A stretch of DNA of 1,249 nt from Escherichia coli. Its GTDB lineage: Bacteria; Pseudomonadota; Gammaproteobacteria; Enterobacterales; Enterobacteriaceae. The translations under genes and the position numbers were made by a program. The DNA lies in assembly GCF_003334255.1 (NCBI RefSeq), contig NZ_QOWU01000169.1, one strand, 5' to 3'. Positions 1 through 657 of this stretch are shown here, piece by piece. Under the pieces are notes generated by a model that saw only the letters and a program-made list of their open reading frames with translations, made no database searches and was not told the DNA's origin. The first letter of the stretch is position 1, and each line of letters starts with the position of its first letter.

Positions 1-277
1 ATACATGATCAAATACTCCTTACATAAATAAGGTGAACAAATGGAACTTAAAAAATTGATGGAACATATTTCTATTACACCCGATTACAGACAAGCCTGG
101 AAAGTGGTGCATAAATTGTCAGATATTCTACTGTTGACTATTTGTGCCGTTATTTCTGGTGCAGAAGGTTGGGAAGATATAGAGGATTTCGGGGAAACAC
201 ATCTCGATTTTTTGAAGCAATATGGTGATTTTGAAAATGGTATTCCTGTTCACGATACCATTGCCAGAGTTGTATCC
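1..277 (+). repeat. Direct repeat copy A: 5' UTR plus first 79 codons of an ISAs1-family/H-rpt transposase gene; the repeat may extend upstream of the window
   Basis: Manual alignment of 1-277 against 381-657 (offset 380) gives 13 mismatches in 277 bp (~95% identity). Homology ends abruptly after position 277/657. The first 40 bp (1-40 vs 381-420) are identical. Confidence 0.9.
30..36 (+). promoter_or_regulatory. Shine-Dalgarno sequence (AAGGTGA) for the 41-295 ORF
   Basis: AGGTG core at 31-35, a 5-nt spacer, then ATG at 41. The identical motif sits before the copy B start. Confidence 0.6.
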
Positions 278-295
278 CAGGGAAAGATCACGTAA
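41..295 (+). CDS. Truncated ISAs1-family (H-repeat-associated) transposase N-terminal fragment, 84 aa; probably an inactive remnant
   Basis: ORF from the track ([84 protein letters not shown]). Residues 1-79 are collinear with the N-terminus of copy B. After codon 79 the sequence leaves the repeat and gives 5 unrelated residues (QGKIT) and TAA at 293-295. From memory the N-terminus resembles E. coli H-repeat-associated proteins (YhhI/YdcC/YbfL type); the 84-aa size is reminiscent of ybfQ, but this is unverified. Confidence 0.65.
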
Positions 296-380
296 CGCTA
301 CTTTTTTGTACTAAATAATTCGCATTTTATGTTTAAAAATTGAGATATTCCTTATTACCTAAAGCTGTTTTTCATAGCTT

Positions 381-657
381 ATACATGATCAAATACTCCT
401 TACATAAATAAGGTGAACAAATGGAACTTAAAAAATTGATGGAACATATTTCTATTATTCCCGATTACAGATAAGCCTGGAAAGTAGAGCATAAATTGTC
501 AGGCATCCTACTATTGACTATTTTTGCCGTTATTTCTGGTGCAGAAAGTTGGGAAGATATAGAGGATTTCGGGGAAACACATCTCGATTTCTTGAAGCAA
601 TATGGTGATTTTGAAAATGGTATTCCTGTTCACGATACTATTGCCAGAGTTGTATCC
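381..657 (+). repeat. Direct repeat copy B (partner of 1-277)
   Basis: Same alignment as copy A. Mismatches relative to copy A lie at copy-A positions 78, 79, 92, 106, 108, 123, 124, 127, 133, 144, 167, 211 and 259. Confidence 0.9.
410..416 (+). promoter_or_regulatory. Shine-Dalgarno sequence (AAGGTGA) for the copy B transposase start
   Basis: AGGTG at 411-415, a 5-nt spacer, then ATG at 421. Identical to the copy A site. Confidence 0.6.

Follow-up and report, generated by a model that had tools for sequence, protein, structure and literature searches.

Why should two 40-bp leaders in one stretch of Escherichia coli DNA be identical when the transposase reading frames that follow them have diverged? 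The stretch analyzed here, 1,249 nt in length and hereafter called the window, carries the same 40 bp at positions 1-40 and 381-420, and a preliminary description of it had counted 13 substitutions between the adjoining segments of 237 bp (41-277 and 421-657). Both counts proved exact, as did the placement of a GATC Dam site at 7-10 and 387-390 and of an AAGG(TG) SD sequence 5 nt 5′ of the ATG. Constraint on an element terminus or on a regulatory region, gene conversion, and chance had each been proposed as the reason for the identity. The explanation that we regard as very probable, taken as a whole, is that the 40 bp are the end of the leader of a duplicated insertion sequence, that they are identical by common descent with no unusual constraint, and that they carry putative signals for transposase expression.

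Two Defective H-rpt Copies at the RhsC Locus

The window consists of two adjacent defective copies of H-rpt/ISEc1, an element of the ISAs1 family, at the RhsC locus of E. coli K-12. The chromosome of a K-12 derivative matches all 1,249 nt at 100%, and sequence related to the window is found in 5,343 of 5,426 complete E. coli genomes, at roughly 26,000 places in all. According to the annotation, the order of the neighboring genes is rhsC, ybfB, a Rhs core fragment, ybfC, ybfQ, ybfL, ybfD, ybgA, and phrB, with ybfQ described as an ISAs1 family transposase missing its C-terminus, ybfL as an ISAs1 transposase with an internal stop, and ybfD as a truncated ISAs1 transposase. These last three genes are the RhsC-linked array of three tandem H-rpt (H-repeat)/ISEc1 copies of E. 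coli K-12; the H-rpt names and the first description reportedly go back to the early 1990s and the group of C. W. Hill. The window is that locus and shows no difference from it. Neither the element nor the locus is new, both having been annotated before, and the present analysis adds a detailed map of the leader and a comparison of it among copies.

A full H-rpt element contains a single reading frame of 378 codons. Of 14 full copies measured, 12 are 1290-1291 bp long and the others 1285 and 1292 bp. The left inverted repeat (IRL) is CAGGGAAAGATCACGTAA and the IRR is CAGGG(A/C)AAGATTACGAAA; the repeats span 18-19 nt and are 89% complementary, and the CAGGG..AGATC end is common to H-rpt and distant members of the ISAs1 family. 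Family assignment was made with the ISAs1 transposase model NF033564, which has a curated cut-off of 70 bits. An intact yhhI-type copy scored 412 bits, and the frame of the ybfL copy, searched from the codon after its stop, scored 306 bits. The 84-aa product of the ybfQ copy reached 65 bits, slightly below the cut-off, because it is only a fragment. Insertion of ISAs1 family elements produces a direct repeat of 8-10 bp at the target site. No such flanking repeats were seen around the 14 full H-rpt copies, and these insertions without visible target duplications may be old or rearranged. An Rfam search of the window gave no match at E ≤ 1.

The anatomy of the two copies was established by reading 6 kb of flanking sequence on each side, position 6001 of the extended sequence being position 1 of the window. 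The window contains a direct repeat with a period of 380 (1-277 and 381-657), formed by two copies on the + strand. The first, the ybfQ fragment (C1), retains only the 5′ 380 bp of the element, breaking off at element position 380; it starts 103 bp upstream of the window, and its last 277 bp (element positions 104-380) occupy 1-277. The second, the ybfL pseudogene (C2), runs from its left end at 278 to 1249 and extends beyond the window. The left inverted repeat is found at positions 5898 (C1) and 6278 (C2) of the extended sequence, the latter corresponding to 278-295 of the window and holding a GATC of its own at 286-289, and a matching C2 IRR at 7550-7567 gives an element of 1290-1291 bp. 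The two 40-mers cannot be an element terminus, as had been suggested, given that CAGGGAAAGATCACGTAA is found 103 bp before the window begins in C1 and at position 278 in C2. In C1 the 5′ untranslated left end is 143 nt long, and positions 1-40 show no more than its final 40 nt; that of C2 is present in full (143 nt) at 278-420, and most of the corresponding C1 sequence, which differs from it at eight positions, falls outside the window.

Both copies are dead, C1 being truncated after codon 79 of the transposase and C2 being stopped at codon 18. The ybfQ ORF (84 aa; 41-295, + strand) comprises transposase codons 1-79 and then crosses the junction into the left inverted repeat of C2. The transposase frame of C2 has its start codon at 421-423 and a premature TAA at 472-474, where the other copies have CAA. 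An origin of the tandem structure by insertion of C2 into C1 was rejected: the DNA after C2 belongs to the ybfD copy, which starts at element position ~24-26, and not to the rest of C1.

Divergence between the Two Copies

When C1 and C2 are compared over the full 380 bp, they differ at 21 positions, 8 of them in the 143-nt untranslated leader (5.6%) and 13 in the 237 bp of coding sequence (5.5%). All eight leader differences fall at element positions 46-81, outside the window, and the upstream 103 nt of the leader have diverged by 7.8%. The counts inside the window are correct, but over the entire leader the supposed difference in conservation between leader and gene disappears; it is an artefact of a window that starts in the middle of the leader, the window edge hiding most of it. 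The mismatch-free run also straddles the ATG instead of ending where the leader meets the gene. The first mismatch between C1 and C2 is at window position 78, so that the perfect run continues 37 bp into the coding sequence, and its length is 77 bp when counted within the window and 99 bp when the genomic sequence is followed upstream (element positions 82-180, window -21 to 77). The conservation signal vanishes once the full 143-nt leader is considered, and the finding itself matters little, concerning as it does two pseudogenes, both already annotated, of an insertion sequence long familiar in E. coli. It does carry the lesson that where a window happens to begin can make a leader look conserved and the gene next to it diverged.

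A given stretch of 40 bp is expected to be free of mismatches about one time in ten. From the data inside the window, with 13 mismatches in 277 bp, the probability is 0.125; over the full 380 bp it is 0.09; and it is 0.096 if each site is given a weight according to how variable it is in 15 independent H-rpt copies, all from outside the group to which C1 and C2 belong. In those 15 copies the last 40 bp of the leader account for 10.6% of the variability and 10.5% of the length. The preliminary description had itself called the signal weak and possibly due to chance, and for the identity of C1 and C2 the data do favor chance (P ~0.09-0.13). Simple chance is not the whole story, since the mismatches are unevenly spread: 11 of the 13 in the window are clustered at 78-167 (partner positions 458-547), and a post hoc test of the longest identical run (99 bp) gave P = 0.03 with uniform sites and 0.06 with weighted sites.

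This patchiness is the main support for a reading under which gene conversion or some other recombination homogenized a block of ~99 bp between C1 and C2, from element position 82 to 180. The perfect block is flanked by two clusters of mismatches (P = 0.03-0.06), 8 at element positions 46-81, with the changes on the C1 side, and 11 at 181-270, mostly private to the C2 lineage. Alleles shared between copies point the same way. The C2 ortholog of Ec-042 has the common C79/G87/T99/T102, where C2 of K-12 has the C1-like T79/A87/C99/A102, and the yafV-locus copies are mosaics of C1-type and C2-type alleles, that of L072 being C1-type at 181-270 and C2-type thereafter. The longest-run test is, however, marginal as well as post hoc, and the Ec-042 copies are still identical over 103-180 although they are without the 87-102 patch, so the identity of the 40 bp needs no event specific to K-12. 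The direction and the donor of any exchange cannot be told, and the T34 and the 1-bp deletion shared by C1 and C2 would follow equally well from a common ancestor of the two types. We therefore consider homogenization of this block a rather unlikely source of the identity. Recombination among H-rpt copies in general is likely, because the mismatches are patchy and the alleles are mosaic between strains (in Ec-042 C2, O178, and L072, a small sample), but it is not required for the 40-bp identity, given the Ec-042 copies. Of the earlier proposal of gene conversion, a possible contributing role survives.

Variation of the Leader among H-rpt Copies

If the 40 bp were under special constraint, other copies of the element should preserve them. 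The copies compared were those at yhhI, ydcC, the yafV locus, and RhsC in O157, AF58, Ec-042, and ACN001, together with further H-rpt copies from other species obtained in one scan of species-representative genomes. Fifteen of the 40 positions and one indel are variable among 28 alignable H-rpt copies, and the changes include both arms of the hairpin described below and the GATC itself, which is GTTC in three Escherichia sp. copies and AATC in E. whittamii. The neighboring ybfD copy differs from C1 and C2 by three substitutions and one indel over the 40 bp. Normal variation of this kind in other copies is what the preliminary description had named as the finding that would overturn its observation. 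Nucleotide diversity (pi) is 0.069 in the 40 bp, compared with 0.060 in the coding sequence, 0.123 at third codon positions, and 0.095 in the remaining untranslated region, and 28 of 231 pairs of distinct H-rpt copies are identical over the 40 bp.

The haplotype shared by C1 and C2 has AAGGTG in place of AAGGAG and one A fewer 5′ of the ATG. It is present in 9 of the 28 copies, all of them within the group formed by C1, C2, and the yafV-locus copies (O178/L072), and it is a derived haplotype that weakens both the SD and the hairpin and shortens the spacer relative to the ancestral AAGGAG form.

These comparisons bear on the proposal that the two 40-mers are kept identical by purifying selection acting on regulatory sequence, namely the Dam site, -10, and SD. 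The TGATC motif and the SD-pairing arms are kept in leaders of ISAs1 family members with 43-96% protein identity, and the 40 bp are roughly half as diverse as third codon positions, as selection would have it. The comparison with synonymous sites that had been put forward as a check gave a count of segregating sites not significantly below that of third codon positions (Fisher p = 0.24), and the more strongly diverged upstream 103 nt belong to the same leader. Selection on the expression signals of C1 and C2 is also implausible because both copies are dead, one by truncation and the other by its stop codon, and the haplotype that they share is the weakened one. Purifying selection is thus largely refuted by the variation in other H-rpt copies, at sites that include the GATC and both arms, and we hold it to be very improbable. 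The description of the 40 bp as a region with an SD and a Dam site is right as to content, and constraint on that content is not the reason why C1 and C2 agree. The identity of the 40-mers is a matter of common descent within one H-rpt sublineage, perhaps with patchy recombination in addition.

A Dam Site within a Promoter-Like Block

What the 40 bp might do in a living element is a separate matter from why two dead copies share them. The 9-mer TGATCAAAT at 6-14 (second copy 386-394, + strand) can be read as TG-n-TCAAAT, an extended -10-like sequence that incorporates the Dam GATC at 7-10. We compared the 60 nt upstream of ~55 ISAs1 family transposase genes whose products have 43-96% protein identity, and 43 leaders anchored on TGATC gave the family consensus TTGAC(C/G), 14 nt, TGATC(A/T)NAT. 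The -35-like TTGAC(C/G) lies exactly 17 bp from TCNNAT, with TG upstream of the latter, and matches at five or more of six positions in 26 of the 43 leaders; a -35 at 17 bp was found only for the TCNNAT register. The GATC occupies the same register in most of the 43, and many ISAs1 members have two or three GATC sites across the -35, spacer, and -10 region. A further GATC is conserved at nt 9-12 of the family IRL, where the IRR of H-rpt has GATT instead.

The same 9-mer occurs at nt 66-74 of the left end of IS10, a sequence that we verified at 100% on R100 and other plasmids. A scan of the leader with a consensus sigma-70 model found no site on the + strand, because that scan demands A at -11 and the -10 hexamer here has C at -11; the promoter reading is based on conservation in the family and on the IS10 parallel, not on the consensus scan. 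The family -35 is absent from the Escherichia H-rpt group, the window included, which has TGTTTT in its place. At the level of sequence, the overlap of the GATC with the -10 region is what would be expected of a Dam-sensitive transposase promoter. Genomic SELEX, a method of low resolution, has placed RNA polymerase binding near yhhI and ydcC (PMC5493296). The papers searched on H-rpt, ISEc1, IS1358, and a link between ISAs1 and Dam, a set that stopped short of the older IS literature, gave no account of regulation by the leader.

A Candidate SD-Pairing Hairpin

Directly after the 9-mer, the leader contains a predicted hairpin in which an anti-SD left arm, CTCCTTA (16-22; second copy 396-402), pairs with a right arm that holds the SD, TAAGGTG (29-35; second copy 409-415), both on the + strand. 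In the window copies the derived T34, a change from AAGGAG, breaks one pair. A hairpin is found in this place in almost every ISAs1 family leader: the left arm begins at position 8-12 in 45 of 48 leaders, and the SD is inside the right arm in 34 of the 36 in which an SD is recognizable. The arms themselves differ, with 40 distinct arm pairs among the leaders and lineage-specific stems such as CTCCC/GGGAG, ACTGGCT/AGCCAGT, GCCTTT/AAAGGC, CGGGAAAT/ATTTCCCG, CAAGCA/TGCTTG, and TAATTC/GAATTA.

Relative to dinucleotide shuffles the hairpins have a mean z of -2.9, with p < 0.05 in 75% of the 48 leaders, and native arm pairs have a mean fold energy of -7.0 kcal/mol compared with -3.7 for chimeras in which leader halves were swapped. 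These shuffle and chimera tests, written in Python, were added beside a covariance model that was built from seven seeds and recruited only leaders of the CTCC/GGAG type, so that the covariation figures under-sample the lineages with different stems. In the alignment fitted by that model (25 distinct sequences), 91.7% of cells are paired, compared with 38-76% when partners are slid, and double changes occur at four of the six pairs; the RNAalifold covariation term is small on the subset aligned in this way. A MAFFT alignment of the 48 leaders was excluded from the pair counts because differing loop lengths had left the right arms misaligned. The hairpin of the window itself is weak, at -3.5 kcal/mol with z between -1.2 and +0.25. 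Folding predictions therefore point to an SD-sequestering stem-loop whose stability across the family exceeds chance, and to weak folding in the copies of the window.

Proposed Control of Transposase Expression

The 40 bp would represent the core of the transposase expression signals. The extended -10 TGATCAAAT would place the promoter under the influence of Dam methylation through its GATC, as in the pIN promoter of IS10, and the anti-SD arm, located between the -10 and the predicted transcription start, could pair with the SD. Transcripts that read in from upstream rhs genes would include the left arm, with the SD masked and translation poor, whereas transcripts from the element's own promoter would be without the left arm and have the SD free. 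Read-through is a realistic hazard; H-rpt is co-oriented with the upstream full-length rhs gene at all six of the loci that have one. If transcription begins 7 nt after TCNNAT, a position for which IS10 is the only model, the left arm would be largely or wholly upstream of the start in most leaders.

A first parallel is IS10 (Tn10). Its Dam site overlaps the -10 of pIN, and Dam methylation regulates expression of its transposase (PMC5006887). The 9-mer stands ~26-33 nt upstream of the transposase ATG in both IS10 and H-rpt, and the presence of GATC in the ISAs1 IRL and GATT in the H-rpt IRR recalls the single methylation-sensitive end of IS10. In IS10, moreover, upstream sequence pairs with the translation start and blocks translation of read-through transcripts. 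The IS10 transcript RNA-IN starts at nt 81, 7 nt after the -10 hexamer. A start at that nucleotide fits the 35-nt overlap of RNA-IN and RNA-OUT (PMC5006887). The two elements differ in that the transposase of IS10 belongs to the IS4 family and not to ISAs1, in that the Escherichia H-rpt group is without a -35, and in that antisense control of the RNA-OUT type is a property of IS10, the H-rpt leader offering only a promoter-like match on the opposite strand; the shared 9-mer could reflect convergence or chance. A second parallel is IS50 (Tn5), in which GATC sites make the transposase promoter T1 Dam-sensitive (PMC4265352), much as many ISAs1 members also have more than one GATC in the promoter region. 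The sequences of IS50 and H-rpt are unrelated, however, and the inhibitor protein and second promoter of IS50 have no H-rpt counterpart. By analogy with these two systems, we infer that the H-rpt leader is subject to a similar kind of control.

The direction in which the hairpin acts depends on where transcription starts, and the -10 register is ambiguous, with CATGAT/TATGAT, TCNNAT, and (T/A)ATACT overlapping. In the CATGAT/TATGAT register the start would fall at approximately window position 16 and the hairpin would be transcribed, so that a stem-loop after TGATCNNAT in every native transposase mRNA could serve as a constitutive translational brake or a 5′ stabilizer. There is a precedent in IS200: a report on that element (PMC4513863) describes structure at the ribosome-binding site in the 5′ UTR of the tnpA mRNA, sequestering the SD and suppressing transposase synthesis. 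The structure described there is in the native mRNA, whereas in H-rpt the predicted native start is downstream of the left arm, and IS200 is of another IS family. The TTGAC -35 is found at 17 bp only with the TCNNAT register, which also fits the -10 block of IS10 with its identical 9-mer and its RNA-IN start 7 nt downstream, and which leaves most or all of the left arm untranscribed in most leaders. We consider a constitutive hairpin doubtful on these grounds.

The arrangement that we tentatively propose, as a possibility somewhat short of an even chance, is that in Dam-positive gammaproteobacteria, across the whole ISAs1 family, the leader at the left end forms a hitherto undescribed, multi-layer brake of the IS10 type with three parts. 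These would be the GATC of the IRL, a TTGAC-17-TGnTCNNAT promoter with one to three GATC sites, and an anti-SD arm between the -10 and the start, with the outcome that the SD is sequestered in read-through transcripts only. No description of this three-part architecture in ISAs1 was found in the literature searched, the older IS literature again falling outside its scope. In E. coli, H-rpt would have only a decayed form of this leader, the -35 having been lost, and in the sublineage of the window the SD would have been weakened too. If this is true, it could help explain why movement of H-rpt has never been seen. More generally, the leaders suggest that ISAs1 elements keep their transposase low by the logic of IS10 and IS50, through Dam-sensitive promoter signals and a fold that masks the SD, and confirmation would bring one more IS family under a known regulatory scheme. 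The family-wide, IS10-like architecture of the leader is a modest lead of a known kind.

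The H-rpt Array at RhsC and Its Single-Copy Form

In the K-12 derivative chromosome (locus L001, in which window position 1 is 6001), the right end of the second H-rpt copy (C2, the ybfL pseudogene) adjoins a third copy (C3, ybfD) at a junction at L001 7567-7570. C3 has undergone two losses: its first 23-25 bp, corresponding to the left terminal inverted repeat (IRL), are missing, and an internal deletion removes approximately element positions 913-1223, the site of which lies at L001 8455-8457. Because C3 adjoins C2, lacks the IRL, and carries this internal deletion, the RhsC H-rpt array consists of a 5′ fragment (C1, ybfQ), one full copy, and one copy with two deletions; a scenario in which one copy simply inserted into another does not account for this make-up.

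At the RhsC locus of E. coli AF58 (L088 2501-3791), a single H-rpt copy is found where K-12 carries C1 and C2. The upstream flank is the same as in K-12 (..CCATTTG|CAGGG), and over the whole of the initial 385 bp the single copy is C2-type. In E. coli, therefore, the 380-bp C1 unit is polymorphic. At a coverage cutoff of at least 80%, a junction-type query was matched in 2,530 of 5,426 genomes, some of which may carry the single-copy form.

Variation in the Left End of H-rpt

Alignment of H-rpt copies revealed two quite different haplotypes of the inner IRL (element 13-28; window 290-305 in C2), reading either CACGTAACGCT(A/G)C or CATCA(G/A)AAGT(T/A)CAC. The distribution of these haplotypes among the aligned copies is out of step with the remainder of the element, which is a further sign of H-rpt mosaicism. 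The leader GATC, a Dam site at window 7-10, is replaced at the equivalent position by GTTC in three copies (L023, L024, and L081) from a single genome, Escherichia sp. MOD1-EC7003, and by AATC in one Escherichia whittamii copy (L008); thus, the Dam site in the leader is not kept by every Escherichia H-rpt lineage.

Regulatory-Like Matches and Short Repeats

On the minus strand, a promoter-like match, TTTCCA-18-AATAAT, runs from window 483 to 454 (L001 6483-6454) within C2 codons 12-21; it agrees with the promoter consensus at 9 of 12 positions, and chance alone is expected to produce matches of this kind in that region. Most H-rpt copies have GATAAT in place of AATAAT. A transcript from this site, if the site is a genuine promoter, would run antisense to the C2 start codon and Shine-Dalgarno sequence, in the manner of RNA-OUT, the antisense RNA of IS10. 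In both C1 and C2, the plus strand of the transposase coding region also contains a hairpin that resembles a terminator and leads into a T run (TCGGGGAAACACATCTCGA TTTTTT; window 189-207 and 569-587), two such sites being found versus 0.3 expected in shuffles.

Directly 5′ of the C1 IRL, at L001 5882-5897, lies TTTTGCGTTCCATTTG, which matches the H-rpt start region CAAATGGAACTTAAAA in reverse complement (88%); it could be due to chance or be a remnant of an inverted copy. The 12-mer TTAAAAAATTGA occupies codons 3-6 of both C1 and C2 (window 48-59 and 428-439), and its recurrence, altered at one position, as TTTAAAAATTGA in the leader of C2 (window 332-343; element 55-66) is probably chance in AT-rich sequence.

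A Second ISAs1-Family Element at yafV

In an O178:H19 strain, the yafV locus carries, at L004 1915-3041, a second, distinct ISAs1-family element, frameshifted and with ∼67% DNA identity to H-rpt, directly upstream of an H-rpt copy. Four contigs (L071, L072, L074, and L075) from metagenome bins labeled Sporosarcina, Bacillota, Planococcaceae, and Flavobacterium show the arrangement of the E. coli yafV locus, in the order second ISAs1 element (58% identical) and then H-rpt, with flanks that are nearly identical; these contigs probably represent Escherichia DNA that was mis-binned.
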